From contig OY762825.2 of the NCBI GenBank assembly GCA_963666425.2, forward strand, positions 1,568,001 to 1,632,000: 64,000 nt of DNA, written 5' to 3'. The stretch comes from Bacillota bacterium. Its GTDB lineage: Bacteria > Bacillota > JAAYKD01. Position 1 is the stretch's first letter; every line of letters starts with the position of its first letter. The notes under the pieces are model-generated. The model made no database searches. It had not been told where the DNA came from and saw only the letters and a list, made by a program, of their open reading frames with translations. A program made the translations under genes and the position numbers. Of the stretch, positions 19,699 through 26,322 are shown in pieces.

Positions 19699-20601
19699 TT
19701 ACAGCGCCTCCGATGCTTTGATCACGCCGGCAGCAGCAGCCAGCTGCAGCACATGCTGCGCCCGCAGCACAACCGGCCGATCAATCATTTTACCATTCAG
19801 GCTGATCACACCGCTGCCCCGCGCCTCCGCTTCCTGCAATGCCGCGATGATCCGCTGCGCCTGCTCCACTTCCGGCTTCGTCGGTGTAAAAATACGATGA
19901 ATCGGCTGAATTTGTCTGGGATGAATCACCGATTTGCCGTCAAAACCAAGATTCTTGATCAATCTGGTTTCATAAATCAACTGCTCCTCATTATTGAGAT
20001 CAGAATAGACCGTATCCAAAGCAGCAATACCGGCTGCCCGGGCGGCCAGGACAATCGTCTGACGTGCCAATTGCAGTTCGGCTCCGCTCGCCGTACGTTG
20101 GCAGCGCAAATCCGCACAGAAATCCTCCGCACCCAAAGCAATGCCAATCAAGCGCGGCGAAGCGACTGCGATGGCATAAGCTTCGATCACCCCGCGCGCG
20201 CTTTCAATGGCAGCCATCATCAGCGTAGAACCAATGGGGCGATGGTGCTTTGCTTCCATTTCCGCAATCACCTGCTCGCAATCCCGCACATCCTGCGCTG
20301 TTTCTGTTTTGGGCATGCGCAGCACATCAACACCGGCGCAGACCATGGCCTCAATATCCTGACGGCCAAAGGGCGTACTGAGCGGATTGATCCGCACCAC
20401 CAGCTCAACGCCTCCGTAATCGATGGTTCGTAACGCCTCGTAAACCAATTGGCGGGCAGCATCTTTTTCGGATAAGGAAACGGAATCTTCCAGATCAAAC
20501 ATCAGCGCATCGGCTCCGTAAATCTGCGCATCCCGAATCATACCGGGTTGATTGCCGGGGATAAACATCATGGTGCGGCGCAGTCTAGACTTCTCCGTCA
20601 T
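19699..20601 (-). CDS. citE: Citrate lyase beta subunit
   Basis: RRTMMFIPGN, FDLEDSV, LGAEDF and GFDGKSVIHPRQ motifs. Confidence 0.95.
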   Translation of the reverse strand: MTEKSRLRRTMMFIPGNQPGMIRDAQIYGADALMFDLEDSVSLSEKDAARQLVYEALRTIDYGGVELVVRINPLSTPFGRQDIEAMVCAGVDVLRMPKTETAQDVRDCEQVIAEMEAKHHRPIGSTLMMAAIESARGVIEAYAIAVASPRLIGIALGAEDFCADLRCQRTASGAELQLARQTIVLAARAAGIAALDTVYSDLNNEEQLIYETRLIKNLGFDGKSVIHPRQIQPIHRIFTPTKPEVEQAQRIIAALQEAEARGSGVISLNGKMIDRPVVLRAQHVLQLAAAAGVIKASEAL

Positions 20602-20899
20602 CTTGCTGCCTCCCTTGCCATGAAAATTCTGTGCACTCACTAGCCCGCAGGACCGCCGTGGTCAGACGGGCCCGGATCGCACAGTCCAGCGCGCCTTTAT
20701 CGGTGGCCGTCACCAGAGCAGAAAATATCTGTAGCGCCGCCAGTGTTTCTGTGATCGTCAGCCGAATTTGGCGGCCATAAAGCCGTTCCACACTGCTGGT
20801 CAAATCGATTTCAATACCATTGCCTTGATTCGGCTCGATCTCGATCAGAATATCCCCCGATTCCAAGGTCCCGGCTGTCGCTTTTTTACTTAATTGCAT
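20585..20899 (-). CDS. citD: Citrate lyase acyl carrier protein (gamma subunit)
   Basis: AGTLESGD (prosthetic-group Ser) and DKGALDC motifs. Confidence 0.95.
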   Translation of the reverse strand: MQLSKKATAGTLESGDILIEIEPNQGNGIEIDLTSSVERLYGRQIRLTITETLAALQIFSALVTATDKGALDCAIRARLTTAVLRASECTEFSWQGRQQDDGEV

Positions 20900-20959: not shown

Positions 20960-21787
20960 TTATGCTAAGAGACCGAAATAAACCAAAACGGCAATACCCA
21001 GAACAATTCGATACCAACCGAAAACGGCAAAATCATTTTTCTGAATATAGCGCATCAGAAAACGAATGGCCAAGAGGGAAACCACAAAAGCCACAATCGT
21101 ACCGACCGCCAGAATCGCCCACTCGGTTTGCGTCAGGACAAAGCCAAATTTCAAAATGCGCAGGGCACTGGCACCCAGCATGACCGGAATGGCCATAAAG
21201 AAAGAAAACTCCGCCGCAATGGTGCGGGAAGCGCCCAGCAGCATACCGCCTAAAATTGTCGCTCCGGAGCGGGAGGTGCCGGGAACCAAGGCCAGGACCT
21301 GAAAGATACCCATCAAGGCGGCAGTGCCGTAGCCGAAGTGATCCATCTTGCGAATCTTTGCCTGCCGCGATTTGTTGCGCCGCTCCAAAACAATAAACAG
21401 CACACCGTAGACAATCAGCATGATCGCCACCGTCAGATAGCCGCTGAGCTTTGCTTCTACCCAATCATTAAACAAAAGTCCAATGATCCCCGCCGGAACG
21501 GAAGCCACAAAAACCTTCAGCCATAACTCGATTGTCTCTTTGCGTTCGCGCTTGGATTTACTGAGAGCAAAAGGATTCAAACGATTAAAATAAAGTACAA
21601 TGACAGCCAAAATAGAGCCCAACTGCACAACTACCAGGAACATATTCATAAAGGTCGCCGACACATTCAAATGCATCAACTCGTCCAATAAAATCATATG
21701 TCCGGTGCTACTGACCGGCAGCCATTCCGTAACGCCCTGCACAAGCCCCAAGAGCGCTGCTTTCGCAATTTCCAACCAATTCATCAT
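20960..21787 (-). CDS. uppP: Undecaprenyl-diphosphatase (BacA family)
   Basis: [21 protein letters not shown] and AAEFSF motifs. Confidence 0.95.
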
Positions 21788-21972
21788 AAACCGCCTCCCT
21801 TAATACGATTATTTTAGCACGTTACCAGGCTTTTTACCATGACTATTTCGTAATATTACGAAATTGATATCATTTTCCACTGTGTAGGAATTATTACGCC
21901 CTTTGAAGAAATGATCAAGCAATTGGCGGGAAGAGGAAGCGTCCGCAACCTGTCAAAGAAGGAAGCACCCGC

Positions 21973-22170
21973 TCAAGTACATTGGGCAGAACCAACAAAA
22001 TAGATAGGTAGACCGATCAAGCACACTGGGCAAAACCAACAAAATGTAGAAGCAAACCGATCAAACACATTGGCCGAACCAACAAAAATATAAAGCAAAC
22101 CGATCAAGCGCATTGGGCAGAACCAACAATAATATAAAGCAAGCCGATGAAGCACATTGGGCAGATGTAG
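21973..22170 (+). repeat. Degenerate 43-44 bp tandem repeat, about 4.5 copies, ending in the GTAG of a REP
   Basis: Units TCAAGCACATTGGGCAGAACCAACAAAAT...AAACCGA start at 21973, 22017, 22061, 22104 and 22148. Confidence 0.9.
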
Positions 22171-22203
22171 CCAGCTATCAAACGTCAAGTGGCAAAACGA
22201 AAA

Positions 22204-23376
22204 TTATATTCTGGGAACATAAGGCTTTTTATCCCTTAAAACAGCAAAAACAATGTTGCATAATTTATGTGTAACAGCTCCAATTGCCGTCATATAATCT
22301 TTTCCTTCGTCGCGTTTCTTCTGGTAAAAAGCAGACATGACCGGATCTTTTTGCGCGGCAACCGTTGCGGCATTCCAGAGCGCTCTGCGCAGATAAGGTG
22401 AGCCTCGCTTCGACATCGTGTTGTGCGTTGAAGTGAAATTACCGGATTGCTTAATCGAAGGGTCAATACCGGCAAATGCCGCCAGTTTCTTTGGATTTTC
22501 GAAATTATCAATATTGCCGATTTCCGAGTAGATCACCGCAGCCGAGGTGACTCCAACACCAATAATGGTATCCAGATAGCATTCACATTGGGAATAGATC
22601 TGCTCAATCTTATTCTCAATTGCGTCAATCTGTTCTTCAATGAATTGAATCAGATCCACGGTTTGGTGTAATTCAAAGCATAGAGCAGCGTTCGCTCTAT
22701 TCACACCAACAGTGTGTCTGCAGGCGCTGCGGATCTCCAGCGCTTTTTCCTCACCGAAACTGCCGCGGGAATGCTTCGCTAAAAAATCAGCCAACCGCTT
22801 TGTGCCGAGCTTCAGAATGGCATCCGGTGACGGATACTTGCTGAGCAACTCCAGCGAAGTTTTACCGAAAATATTGGAAAACAGCTTGTGATATTCCGGA
22901 AAAAGGTGATCCAGCACGCCAATTACATGGTTTTTGTGCTTTGCAATCTCATCAACCAGAGAACAGCGGAAACGGCATAACTCGCGTAAATTCTGGACAT
23001 CCTCCGTTTGTACCGCTACGTCGGAATAACGTCCCATGCGGATCACATCCGCGATATAACCGCAATCCACCGTATCCGTCTTGGTTTTACGGACAGACAT
23101 GCGCCGTATGGCGTCGGTGAGCAGGGGATTGACCACATGCAATTCAATTCCTAAATCGAGTAAAACACAATAAAAATTCAGCCAGTAATGACCGGTGGCT
23201 TCCATGCCGACGCAAATTGCATCTTGCTTTTGGTAAAGAGCGACCTTCTGCAAAAACAATTGAAAGCCCTCTTCGGAATTTTCAAATGCAAACGAGGGAG
23301 CCAGCGCTTGACCACTGGCGTCCACCGCGATCACCTGGTGACGGAATTTACCGATGTCTACGCCAAAAGTAATCAT
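22204..23376 (-). CDS. IS110 family DEDD transposase/recombinase
   Basis: GVDIGK, GMEATG and KTKTDTVD (DEDD RuvC-like); AFAGIDPSIKQSG (catalytic Ser region); SKRGSPYLRRAL. Confidence 0.95.
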   Translation of the reverse strand: MITFGVDIGKFRHQVIAVDASGQALAPSFAFENSEEGFQLFLQKVALYQKQDAICVGMEATGHYWLNFYCVLLDLGIELHVVNPLLTDAIRRMSVRKTKTDTVDCGYIADVIRMGRYSDVAVQTEDVQNLRELCRFRCSLVDEIAKHKNHVIGVLDHLFPEYHKLFSNIFGKTSLELLSKYPSPDAILKLGTKRLADFLAKHSRGSFGEEKALEIRSACRHTVGVNRANAALCFELHQTVDLIQFIEEQIDAIENKIEQIYSQCECYLDTIIGVGVTSAAVIYSEIGNIDNFENPKKLAAFAGIDPSIKQSGNFTSTHNTMSKRGSPYLRRALWNAATVAAQKDPVMSAFYQKKRDEGKDYMTAIGAVTHKLCNIVFAVLRDKKPYVPRI

Positions 23377-23426
23377 TTACAGCAACTCCTCAAACTGGAA
23401 TGCGGCAAAGGATGATCTCTCTGACG

Positions 23427-23562
23427 CTGACAGCTGCAACCTCGCGTGAAATACAAGGATTTTACCCTATCCAGCCAATACGCAGATTTCTGTCAGATCA
23501 GAGGCAACACTCTACATCACAGGAACGATTCCCAGGGAACAGTACGTTGACCTCTGCCTGAC
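23427..23562 (-). ncRNA. Putative bridge RNA core (target- and donor-binding loops), IS copy 1
   Basis: Stem-enclosed ACUGUUCCCU-hairpin-GAUGUAG matching the insertion target; second stem-loop with partial donor matches; ends approximate. Confidence 0.75.
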
Positions 23563-23668
23563 AAAATTATACCACAAAGGGCAAACCCCTTGGATACCTA
23601 AAGAGTGGCTTTGGCTCGCTTCCTGTACCCCGTAAATGAGTTACCTTGGCACTACTAGTATATACGAG

Positions 23669-23868
23669 GGAACAGTCTTGACTGTTCCGAACGCATCGCA
23701 TCAGTCAGCTTGATATGCTTATGGGTGCGCGGAATGGTCAAGACCATTCCCTACCTTGCACAATGTTTATAACAAATCTGCAATGGTATGCATATTAACG
23801 CCAAGTCACATTGGGCAGAACCAACAAAATAGATTGGCAACCCGATCAAACACATTGGGCAAATGTAG
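23669..23868. repeat. REP mosaic between the IS copies: split REP, linker, inverted REP (23729-23754), module shared with the 39-kb array, 44-bp unit, GTAG
   Basis: GGAACAGTCTTGACTGTTCCG; GCGGAATGGTCAAGACCATTCCCTAC; homology to 39049-39140 and 21973-22170. Confidence 0.85.
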
Positions 23869-23901
23869 CCAGCTATCAAACGTCAAGTGGCAAAACGAAA
23901 A

Positions 23902-25074
23902 TTATATTCTGGGAACATAAGGCTTTTTATCCCTTAAAACAGCAAAAACAATGTTGCATAATTTATGTGTAACAGCTCCAATTGCCGTCATATAATCTTT
24001 TCCTTCGTCGCGTTTCTTCTGGTAAAAAGCAGACATGACCGGATCTTTTTGCGCGGCAACCGTTGCGGCATTCCAGAGCGCTCTGCGCAGATAAGGTGAG
24101 CCTCGCTTCGACATCGTGTTGTGCGTTGAAGTGAAATTACCGGATTGCTTAATCGAAGGGTCAATACCGGCAAATGCCGCCAGTTTCTTTGGATTTTCGA
24201 AATTATCAATATTGCCGATTTCCGAGTAGATCACCGCAGCCGAGGTGACTCCAACACCAATAATGGTATCCAGATAGCATTCACATTGGGAATAGATCTG
24301 CTCAATCTTATTCTCAATTGCGTCAATCTGTTCTTCAATGAATTGAATCAGATCCACGGTTTGGTGTAATTCAAAGCATAGAGCAGCGTTCGCTCTATTC
24401 ACACCAACAGTGTGTCTGCAGGCGCTGCGGATCTCCAGCGCTTTTTCCTCACCGAAACTGCCGCGGGAATGCTTCGCTAAAAAATCAGCCAACCGCTTTG
24501 TGCCGAGCTTCAGAATGGCATCCGGTGACGGATACTTGCTGAGCAACTCCAGCGAAGTTTTACCGAAAATATTGGAAAACAGCTTGTGATATTCCGGAAA
24601 AAGGTGATCCAGCACGCCAATTACATGGTTTTTGTGCTTTGCAATCTCATCAACCAGAGAACAGCGGAAACGGCATAACTCGCGTAAATTCTGGACATCC
24701 TCCGTTTGTACCGCTACGTCGGAATAACGTCCCATGCGGATCACATCCGCGATATAACCGCAATCCACCGTATCCGTCTTGGTTTTACGGACAGACATGC
24801 GCCGTATGGCGTCGGTGAGCAGGGGATTGACCACATGCAATTCAATTCCTAAATCGAGTAAAACACAATAAAAATTCAGCCAGTAATGACCGGTGGCTTC
24901 CATGCCGACGCAAATTGCATCTTGCTTTTGGTAAAGAGCGACCTTCTGCAAAAACAATTGAAAGCCCTCTTCGGAATTTTCAAATGCAAACGAGGGAGCC
25001 AGCGCTTGACCACTGGCGTCCACCGCGATCGCCTGGTGACGGAATTTACCGATGTCTACGCCAAAAGTAATCAT
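23902..25074 (-). CDS. IS110 family DEDD transposase/recombinase
   Basis: Same as 22204-23376 except one residue. Confidence 0.95.
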   Translation of the reverse strand: MITFGVDIGKFRHQAIAVDASGQALAPSFAFENSEEGFQLFLQKVALYQKQDAICVGMEATGHYWLNFYCVLLDLGIELHVVNPLLTDAIRRMSVRKTKTDTVDCGYIADVIRMGRYSDVAVQTEDVQNLRELCRFRCSLVDEIAKHKNHVIGVLDHLFPEYHKLFSNIFGKTSLELLSKYPSPDAILKLGTKRLADFLAKHSRGSFGEEKALEIRSACRHTVGVNRANAALCFELHQTVDLIQFIEEQIDAIENKIEQIYSQCECYLDTIIGVGVTSAAVIYSEIGNIDNFENPKKLAAFAGIDPSIKQSGNFTSTHNTMSKRGSPYLRRALWNAATVAAQKDPVMSAFYQKKRDEGKDYMTAIGAVTHKLCNIVFAVLRDKKPYVPRI

Positions 25075-25124
25075 TTACAGCAACTCCTCAAACTGGAATG
25101 CGGCAAAGGATGATCTCTCTGACG

Positions 25125-25260
25125 CTGACAGCTGCAACCTCGCGTGAAATACAAGGATTTTACCCTATCCAGCCAATACGCAGATTTCTGTCAGATCAGA
25201 GGCAACACTCTACATCACAGGAACGATTCCCAGGGAACAGTACGTTGACCTCTGCCTGAC
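25125..25260 (-). ncRNA. Putative bridge RNA core, IS copy 2
   Basis: Same sequence as the copy 1 left-end region; guides at 25232-25241 and 25210-25216. Confidence 0.75.
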
Positions 25261-25366
25261 AAAATTATACCACAAAGGGCAAACCCCTTGGATACCTAAA
25301 GAGTGGCTTTGGCTCGCTTCCTGTACCCCGTAAATGAGTTACCTTGGCACTACTAGTATATACGAG

Positions 25367-25451
25367 GGAACAGTCTTGACTGTTCCGCAACGTATCGCAC
25401 AAGTAAACCTAATATGTCTATGAACACGCGGAATGGTCAAGACCATTCCGC
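25367..25451. repeat. Inverted REP doublet (REPIN-like); the first REP is split by IS copy 2
   Basis: GGAACAGTCTTGACTGTTCCGC, linker, GCGGAATGGTCAAGACCATTCCGC. Confidence 0.85.
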
Positions 25452-25456
25452 GCATC

Positions 25457-25538
25457 TATACTAGTCGTGCCAAGGTAACTCATTGACAGGGTACAAGAAA
25501 CGAGTCAGAGCAACTCTTTTTAGGTATCCAAGCGGGTT
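25457..25538 (+). mobile_element. Orphan, diverged, inverted copy of the first ~80 bp of the IS110 left end
   Basis: TATACTAGTCGTGCCAAGGTAACTCATT...TAGGTATCCAAG aligns to the reverse complement of 25282-25360 (roughly 85% by eye). Confidence 0.8.
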
Positions 25539-25548
25539 GAAGGAGCTC

Positions 25549-26322
25549 TCAATTTTGCATGCTCGATGATTCTGCTATGTAAATTTGCTCATAAACATCA
25601 AGCATAGTTTCTTTACTGCGCGTGATGTGAATGGCTGCTAAATCTATGTCTAGAGTACGCATTTTTTGAATACAGATTTGAATATCGTTATAGACTTCAA
25701 CCGGAGCAGGGATCTTATTTGCCGCATTGATAAGTGGAAACAGGCGAAATACATCCTGCCGATGCTTACGCAAATCGCGGTCGTTTACATGTGCTCCGCG
25801 AGCTTTACGATCTGTAAGATCCAGCCAAGCTTTCATTTTTAATGGAATGATATGAACTGCATCCAGCACGGAGACATCACCGGCAACTGCTCTGCCAGCC
25901 AGAAGGAACTTATAGTAGCTGTCATTCAATAAAATAGCCGAAAGGCTGGTTATCTCATCGTCAATATGCAGAGGCATGAGATGGCCGATTGCCTGAAGTT
26001 GAACCCCACTTTGAGGGCGTGAGAACAATTCTATCATTTTAGGGTAAGCAGGGTTAGTAGGATTAACAAACCTATAAAACTTTGGCTGTCCAATGCTGCT
26101 CAAGTGTGTTGTATAGTCACCATCTTCAATGAACTGCCAAATAGCTTTGCCAAAATCTGTTGTTAAGGCTTCAATGATAAGCACCATATCAATATCTTGG
26201 GTAAGCCGAAAGTCGAGGCCCGCGTCACTCATCAGCAAATCGCAGGCCATGCCTCCGATTACCGTGTATTGTTCTTTATATGCACTGAAGTGTTCCCTAA
26301 AAACCTCAATTCCATGCGCCAT
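25549..26322 (-). CDS. Putative nucleotidyltransferase (AbiEii-like toxin)
   Basis: VIGGMAC...RLTQDIDMV NTase motif; LKMKAW...KHRQDV C-terminal motif. Confidence 0.7.
   Translation of the reverse strand: MAHGIEVFREHFSAYKEQYTVIGGMACDLLMSDAGLDFRLTQDIDMVLIIEALTTDFGKAIWQFIEDGDYTTHLSSIGQPKFYRFVNPTNPAYPKMIELFSRPQSGVQLQAIGHLMPLHIDDEITSLSAILLNDSYYKFLLAGRAVAGDVSVLDAVHIIPLKMKAWLDLTDRKARGAHVNDRDLRKHRQDVFRLFPLINAANKIPAPVEVYNDIQICIQKMRTLDIDLAAIHITRSKETMLDVYEQIYIAESSSMQN

Follow-up and report, generated by a model that had tools for sequence, protein, structure and literature searches.

A very probable bridge RNA in an intact IS110-group insertion sequence that targets REP-like hairpins of a Bacillota bacterium

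In IS621 of E. coli (PMC11208160, PMC11208158; PDB 8wt6), as presented in the sections of those reports drawn on here, a bridge RNA is encoded in the long left end of the element, upstream of a recombinase of the DEDD and serine type, and folds into two stem-loops whose internal loops carry the guides. The left target guide (LTG) repeats the top-strand sequence of left target and core, so that its pairing partner is the bottom strand, and the right target guide (RTG) complements the top strand across core and right target (PMC11208160); the left and right donor guides (LDG and RDG) divide the strands in the same way, the two left guides reading the bottom strand and the two right guides the top. 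The core is CT, the targets are of the REP type, and the joined ends rebuild a promoter, such a circle-junction promoter being a known feature of the IS110 family in the accounts that treat it. The element described here resembles IS621 in each of these respects and in its catalytic residues, which align with those of IS621. It differs in its protein, which is distant (phmmer E 6.2e-21; 390 aa here versus 326 aa), and, measured against the same sections of the IS621 reports, in a leader of about 100 nt with an internal extended -10-like box before the RNA, in an LDG lacking a match to the first core base, and in an unfit handshake base on the side of the target-binding stem-loop (TBL).

ISPpu10 of Pseudomonas putida (bioRxiv 10.64898/2026.03.19.712850) is the closest functional analogue. 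In the available part of its description, the 3′ arm of a REP hairpin directly upstream of CT serves as left target, a G-U wobble in the left target and an imperfect right-donor pair are tolerated, and the targets are clustered and the copies multiple, all as in the present element; ISPpu10 comes from another phylum and recognizes another REP sequence, and its targets are reported as convergent pairs, whereas the copies here form direct pairs. CazIS110-1 of Caloranaerobacter azorensis (bioRxiv 10.1101/2025.10.25.684509) likewise resides in an anaerobic Firmicute in 10 copies and, in the portion of the report that bears on this, encodes an RNA of about 170 nt built from a TBL unit and a donor-binding stem-loop (DBL) unit; its RNA species and activity were measured. 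The IS1111 group, that of the seekRNA elements, has its recombinase family and its RNA-guided target choice in common with these elements, and carries its RNA in a long right end, with subterminal inverted repeats of 7-17 bp. A search for inverted repeats of at least 6 nt between the first and last 60 nt of the present element returned none; with its RNA in a left end of 290 nt, a right end of 35 nt and no subterminal inverted repeats, the element does not belong to the IS1111 group.

The window (the whole stretch of DNA analysed, 64 kb) holds two copies of the element, of which copy A lies 1698 bp upstream of copy B and contributes a second open reading frame (ORF) and leader. The two copies, their boundaries and their target sites are laid out as follows.

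22169-23666, minus strand: IS110-group element copy B, 1498 bp, with a left end of 290 nt and a right end of 35 nt
22204-23376, minus strand: recombinase gene of copy B, 390 aa, PF01548 + PF02371
23566-23574, minus strand: extended -10-like box TGgTATAAT, just upstream of the RNA and 22 nt before the LTG
23658-23666, minus strand: right donor (RD) CGTATATAC at the left terminus
23667-23676, minus strand: left target plus CT core of copy B (ACTGTTCC-CT)
23669-23688, minus strand: REP hairpin GGAACAGTCAAGACTGTTCC, with the left target of copy B as its 3′ arm
22169-22188, minus strand: right terminus, with a TTGACG -35-like box (22188-83), the left donor (LD) TAGCTGG (22177-71) and the CT core (22170-69)
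22164-22168, minus strand: right target ACATC of copy B
23867-25364, minus strand: IS110-group element copy A, 1 nt different from copy B
Parts of copy A: recombinase 23902-25074; predicted bridge RNA 25114-25263; LTG 25232-25241; RTG 25210-25216
Targets of copy A: left target plus core 25365-25374; right target ACATT 23866-23862

Judged by its sequence, the 390-aa protein is an IS110 family recombinase. It matches PF01548 (1.6e-40) and PF02371 (8.2e-26), and its D7/E59/D101/D104/S311-G312 align to D11/E60/D102/D105/S241-G242 of IS621, these catalytic residues being invariant across 20 homologues. Homologues run to thousands, the best 92% and the next 78% identical; among the best 120 matches a single one carries an organism name (49% identical), and the only solved relatives are the IS621 and ISCro4 proteins (E about 1e-21). 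The TBL lies 116 nt upstream of this ORF on the same strand, within a segment that very probably encodes the bridge RNA of an insertion sequence of the IS110 group, itself intact and targeting a REP-like hairpin. Its parts, as assigned here, are these.

23416-23565, minus strand: predicted bridge RNA, about 150 nt, delimited by the covariance model
23492-23562, minus strand: TBL
23562-23546, minus strand: 5′ stem strand of the TBL, GUCAGGCAGAGGUCAAC
23543-23534, minus strand: LTG, ACUGUUCCCU
23533-23521, minus strand: TBL hairpin, GGGAAUCGUUCCU
23518-23512, minus strand: RTG, GAUGUAG
23508-23492, minus strand: 3′ stem strand of the TBL, GUUGCCUCUGAUCUGAC
23427-23496, minus strand: DBL
23496-90 with 23433-27, minus strand: DBL base helix, CUGACAG with CUGUCAG
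23485-82 with 23437-34, minus strand: DBL stem, CUGC with GCAG
23477-71, minus strand: LDG, UGGCUGG, matching the right end TAGCTGG (22177-71)
23468-55, minus strand: DBL hairpin
23445-41, minus strand: RDG, GCGAG, complementary to CT-CGT of the left end

A first-pass annotation of this DNA had written out the TBL on the minus strand and read it as the left and right target guides of an IS110 bridge RNA. The sequence was exact as written, the interval 23490-23562 was good to 2 nt, and the strand logic is precisely that published for IS621. The left guide, said to equal the left target plus CT core, is identical over 10/10 nt to the top strand of that segment at both window sites and would pair with the bottom strand; GAUGUAG, given as the reverse complement of CT-ACATC, is exactly so at copy B (7/7 with the top strand of core plus right target) and has one G.T wobble at copy A, where the right target is ACATT. 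The guides measure 8+2 nt (LTG) and 5+2 nt (RTG), a further difference from IS621. Chance accounts poorly for these matches: the 64-kb window contains ACTGTTCCCT at four places, both RNA loops and both left junctions (23667-23676 and 25365-25374), against a shuffle expectation of 0.06, and holds two instances of the pattern ACTGTTCCCT-N10-20-GATGTAG where 0.00 are expected. The target specificity had been called decoded, which stands within the window and is looser genome-wide. At the other eight genomic sites the LTG matches 9/10 nt with one U.G wobble, a guide U standing opposite a bottom-strand G because the left target there is ACCGTTCC (8/10 sites, against ACTGTTCC at 2/10). The RTG elsewhere encounters a G.T wobble at six sites and one mismatch at three, in keeping with right flanks of ACATT at 6/10, ACATC at 1/10 and ACCTT (one mismatch) at 3/10.

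That annotation had also called the RNA-guided recombinase complete. The DBL, absent from its description, was identified in the present analysis, and the existence of this donor-binding loop makes the bridge RNA complete, with small departures. The LDG shows one G.T wobble against TAGCTGG and leaves the first core base unmatched, and the RDG shows one G.T wobble against CT-CGT. Directly after the RDG comes G 23440, a possible partner for the final C of the left target; this is the position described for IS621, in the part of the report that concerns it, as the DBL handshake guide (PMC11208158). A TBL-side handshake of the IS621 type is not evident, since the A after the RTG cannot pair with the last G of the left donor.

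The guide assignments were also compared across relatives. Species-representative genomes were scanned, 569 of 587 candidate stretches proved to be relatives, and the best 80 of the 569, with recombinases 43-64% identical, were retained; the counts in this and the next three paragraphs refer to these best 80 of 569. From the 205 nt preceding each start codon came 78 sequences (73 distinct) that form one RNA alignment, in which the stems are conserved and the guide positions vary. Junctions were anchored on the conserved termini and the guides then compared with the flanks. The LTG agreed with its own flank at 5.44/7 positions versus 3.84 for non-cognate flanks, and the RTG at 3.56/6 versus 1.88 (61/71 loci in each case), differences reached in 0/10000 permutations for either guide; these permutation counts are not probabilities, because the loci are related to one another. 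The RTG signal extends over positions +1 to +5 with none at +6, in agreement with the 5-nt right target in the window.

The donor guides follow the element ends just as closely. The right end occurs among the best 80 of 569 relatives as CTGG (47 loci), TTGG (10), CCGG (8) and TTAG (1), and in a non-circular test the right-end variant is the LDG variant in 66/66 loci with a hit, 5/71 having none. For the RDG, the junction was picked on the LTG alone to avoid circularity, and in 61/65 loci CT plus 3 nt pairs with the guide at each of its five positions. Altogether the DBL tracks four LD variants and seven RDG/RD combinations. The first-pass annotation had proposed a search with a covariance (Infernal-type) model as a check; a model built from 70 orthologues with the window left out returned exactly two matches in the 64 kb, the two copies at 23416-23565 and 25114-25263, both full length at 100.3 bits (rough E 8.9e-26). 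No Rfam 15 family matched at E<=1 over 21800-25700.

Several features of these relatives deserve separate mention. Orthologues L013-L091 mostly have non-REP targets, and there the LTG reads (N5)CCTCCT; guides reading TCACCTCCTT number 14/72 among those listed, the window counted. A flank CAT lies 6-24 nt before the junction in 39/61 loci, versus 19 (of at most 61) in a control segment further upstream, and because this CAT lies near the junction, the non-REP orthologues appear to be inserted immediately before a Shine-Dalgarno sequence and start codon carried by the other strand. A ribosome-binding-site-linked target has been reported for IS900-type elements, which the orthologues with CCTCCT guides recall. 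The TAGCTGG-CT terminus of the window element recurs in two orthologues (L012 and L070). In 59/61 scored orthologues (best 80 of 569) the terminus is instead TAG(C/T)(C/T)GG-T-CT, with one extra LTG base after the core, so that the window element differs from most of its relatives by a 1-nt register in both loops at once.

The alignment also supports the fold. RNAalifold on the orthologues returned 15 pairs, all with compensatory changes; a four-helix model leaves 81.6% of cells paired versus 68.0% in shuffled alignments (0/500) and 38-52% with the partners slid, and the DBL base helix shows changes on both sides in 7/7 pairs. Covariation thus supports two stem-loops, each with an internal loop and a distal hairpin, the form that characterizes IS110 bridge RNAs. 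A single-sequence fold of the 304-nt leader (z = -2.14), in which the guides partly pair with each other, was set aside in favour of this comparative structure. The long stem said in the first-pass annotation to close the guides is conserved across the family in its inner part only. The inner helices AGAGG/CCUCU and CAAC/GUUG are conserved, whereas the outer 7 bp or so, GUCAGGC/G-AUCUGAC, are not (duplex energy <= -5 kcal/mol in just 33/71 sequences) and compete with the donor base helix: in 71/71 the strand that follows the donor loop pairs with the 3′ nucleotides of the outer stem (mean -11.2 versus -5.2 permuted), and in the window both the outer TBL stem (-10.6) and the DBL base helix (-13.2) can form. 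Three mutually complementary strands, GUCAGGC, CUGACAG and CUGUCAG (23556-23562, 23490-23496 and 23427-23433), here define two exclusive helices, in which CUGACAG pairs with either GUCAGGC or CUGUCAG; for both, cognate orthologue strands pair better than permuted ones.

The signals that might drive transcription bear on this competition. A -10-like box similar to that at 23566-23574 lies 22-29 nt before the LTG in 62/70 orthologues, 48 of them with the TG (best 80 of 569 relatives), and the start predicted from it in the window falls within the GUCAGGC strand. A circle-junction promoter would take TATATA (23664-23659) as its -10; the joined ends would read TTGACG-16-TATATA in the window element and TTGAC plus TA(T/G)A(A/T)T in 48/55 orthologues of the best 80 of 569, with a 17-nt spacer in 46, and the resulting transcript would include the GUCAGGC strand. 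Since the internal box would start transcription inside the 5′ strand and the circle-junction promoter would take that strand in, the RNA could conceivably adopt two conformers according to whether the element is integrated or circular, with a switch between a target-loop-only RNA and a full bridge RNA. We consider such a promoter-dependent switch rather doubtful; if true, it might account in structural terms for the TBL-only species of CazIS110-1. A consensus promoter and terminator scan flagged neither the internal nor the circle-junction promoter and found no terminator after the first stem-loop. In one metatranscriptome, assembled contigs cover 23182-23448 and 23480-23686; they could stem from DNA or from read-through, and RNA ends are not readable from them. 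No circle junction was seen in the assembled Logan contigs of runs X13, X1, X3 and X6, which is not evidence of absence. Two candidate joints were rejected. One in X6, from 23689 to 22167, was considered as joined ends and has 47 other letters between its sides, which identifies it as a tandem or REP-spacer path; the other, in an X1 contig from 22332 to 23180, has 853 unrelated letters in between.

Beyond the window, whole-genome BLAST and end-anchored extraction brought the total to 10 element copies, each of 1498 bp, which show 0-16 differing positions of 1498 relative to copy B and keep the 390-aa frame open throughout. Their boundaries are uniform. On the left, 10/10 copies abut a REP-type hairpin, GGAAC(G/A)GTCAAGAC(C/T)GTTCC, followed by CT; on the right, 10/10 end in TAGCTGG-CT followed by AC(A/C)T(T/C). 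The CT core is thus present at both junctions of every copy, and once in the empty site described below, as expected of the IS110 core dinucleotide. One copy, at C1:706185, carries the guide variant ACCGUUCCCU and is inserted in a ACCGTTCC (ACCG) site. The genome holds about 182 such hairpins (364 strand-hits), of which 10 are occupied; 137 empty ones are followed by CTAC(A/C)T, and at 64 of these both guides are fully matched, wobbles counted. Sites with the REP variant ACCATTCC are occupied in 0/40 cases versus 10/107 for the others, a difference that a hand calculation puts at about 0.04 and that is suggestive only.

The repeats around the copies have an organization of their own. Eight of the ten copies form four direct pairs (C1 92799-96316, 706185-709490, 1537838-1541606 and 1590169-1593364), with starts 2020, 1808, 2271 and 1698 bp apart, and paired copies occupy neighbouring hairpins within one repeat array. 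A metagenome contig from run X6 likewise carries copies head to tail, separated there by some 70 nt of spacer. After the right target, at 21941-22158 and 23814-23900, lies an array of ~44-bp units (TGCCCAATGTG..ATCGG..TTGTTGGTTC); because the right target ACAT(C/T) begins the first unit, the hairpin and these units constitute a composite repeat, and the number of units differs between the window genome and G001, a genome of the same genus. Just upstream of copy A, at 25438-25539 on the plus strand and next to a GGAATGGTCTTGACCATTCC hairpin, an inverted fragment of about 100 bp is 82-86% identical to the first ~100 nt of the left end of the element, and resembles what would remain of an older or related element inserted the other way round. 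The ORFs flanking on the right, of 275 aa (20960-21787) and 313 aa (19699-20640), are ordinary; to the eye they appear undecaprenyl-diphosphatase-like and citrate-lyase beta-like, respectively.

The locus of G001 orthologous to copy B is an empty site with a single CT (...GGAACAGTCAAGACTGTTCC-CT-ACAATTGCCCAATGTG...), reading ACTGTTCC-CT-ACAAT with no element. G001 has one element copy, 97% identical and at a different hairpin, and its flanking DNA is about 83% identical to that of the window genome. Because G001 lacks the element at the orthologous site, insertion after the split of the two genomes, or else precise loss, must have occurred. The first-pass annotation had called the system probably active, and the ten intact, near-identical copies and the presence/absence difference between congeners lend this indirect support; the element is probably active.

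If the RNA works as its relatives do, the first stem-loop would present the two target guides in an internal loop and the second would present the donor guides; the 390-aa DEDD/Ser recombinase would bind this RNA, as in IS621, ISPpu10 and CazIS110-1; the RNA-protein complex would bring a REP target together with the element's joined ends or with its junctions; and strand exchange at CT would leave the element with a CT on each side. From these analogies we infer transcription, RNA-protein binding, catalysis and retargetability, and hence that the guides may be reprogrammable. The recombinase domains, the donor loop, the covariation, the covariance model and the empty site all agree, and they therefore support the guide reading. 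A structured leader that merely regulates the recombinase, by attenuation or translational control, with flank matches that are carried REP sequence, could explain why the region forms the 5′ leader of the recombinase gene and why mutually exclusive helices are present. It is very improbable, since orthologues at different non-REP sites change the same loop positions with their own flanks and on the correct strands, the second loop follows the element ends through its four LD variants and seven RDG/RD combinations, and the chance expectation of the match is 0.00.

How a genuine bridge RNA is put to use here is a further matter. By analogy with CazIS110-1, where a TBL-only RNA of about 77 nt makes up 90.4% of recombinase-bound transcripts according to the part of that report concerned (bioRxiv 10.1101/2025.10.25.684509), the element might spread mainly by copy-out or direct transfer, with a TBL-only RNA as the major species and the double-stranded circle as a minor route. 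We regard this as less likely than not. The target stem-loop is a self-contained unit of 71 nt with its own extended -10-like box, one of the RNA-library contigs stops at 23480, just beyond it (contigs cannot show RNA ends), and direct pairs 1.7-2.3 kb apart, accounting for 8/10 copies, are expected if old copies stay in place; the lack of a terminator-like site after the first stem-loop tells against it, and the conserved circle-junction promoter argues that the joined-ends form matters. An element with intact RNA and protein that is immobile in this host, its old copies kept alike by gene conversion or its movement blocked by the host, would fit the assembled runs, in which neither a circle junction nor a new insertion was seen, and the 64 fully matching targets that still stand empty. 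It is nevertheless quite unlikely, given copies that differ at <=16/1498 positions with all frames open and an orthologous site in G001 that is empty, with flanks only ~83% identical. The preferred reading remains a bridge RNA serving an intact element that is probably mobile.

Since 85.7% of catalogued IS110 elements have a predicted bridge RNA, the window element belongs to a kind already described: it is a further, well-preserved example of the IS621/ISPpu10/CazIS110-1 type, and as a candidate tool one among thousands. To the specialist, its interest lies in the 1-nt register difference, the missing TBL-side handshake and the competing helices. It offers a fully readable bridge-RNA system, probably a live one, in which each of the four guides is assigned and whose host belongs to an anaerobic Firmicute lineage, and, among the best 80 of 569 relatives, some 70 with paired guides and targets that form a natural reprogramming series for the subfamily. 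The picture that took shape in 2024-2026, in which IS110 elements pick REP hairpins through RNA guides and tolerate wobbles in doing so, is thereby confirmed rather than extended.
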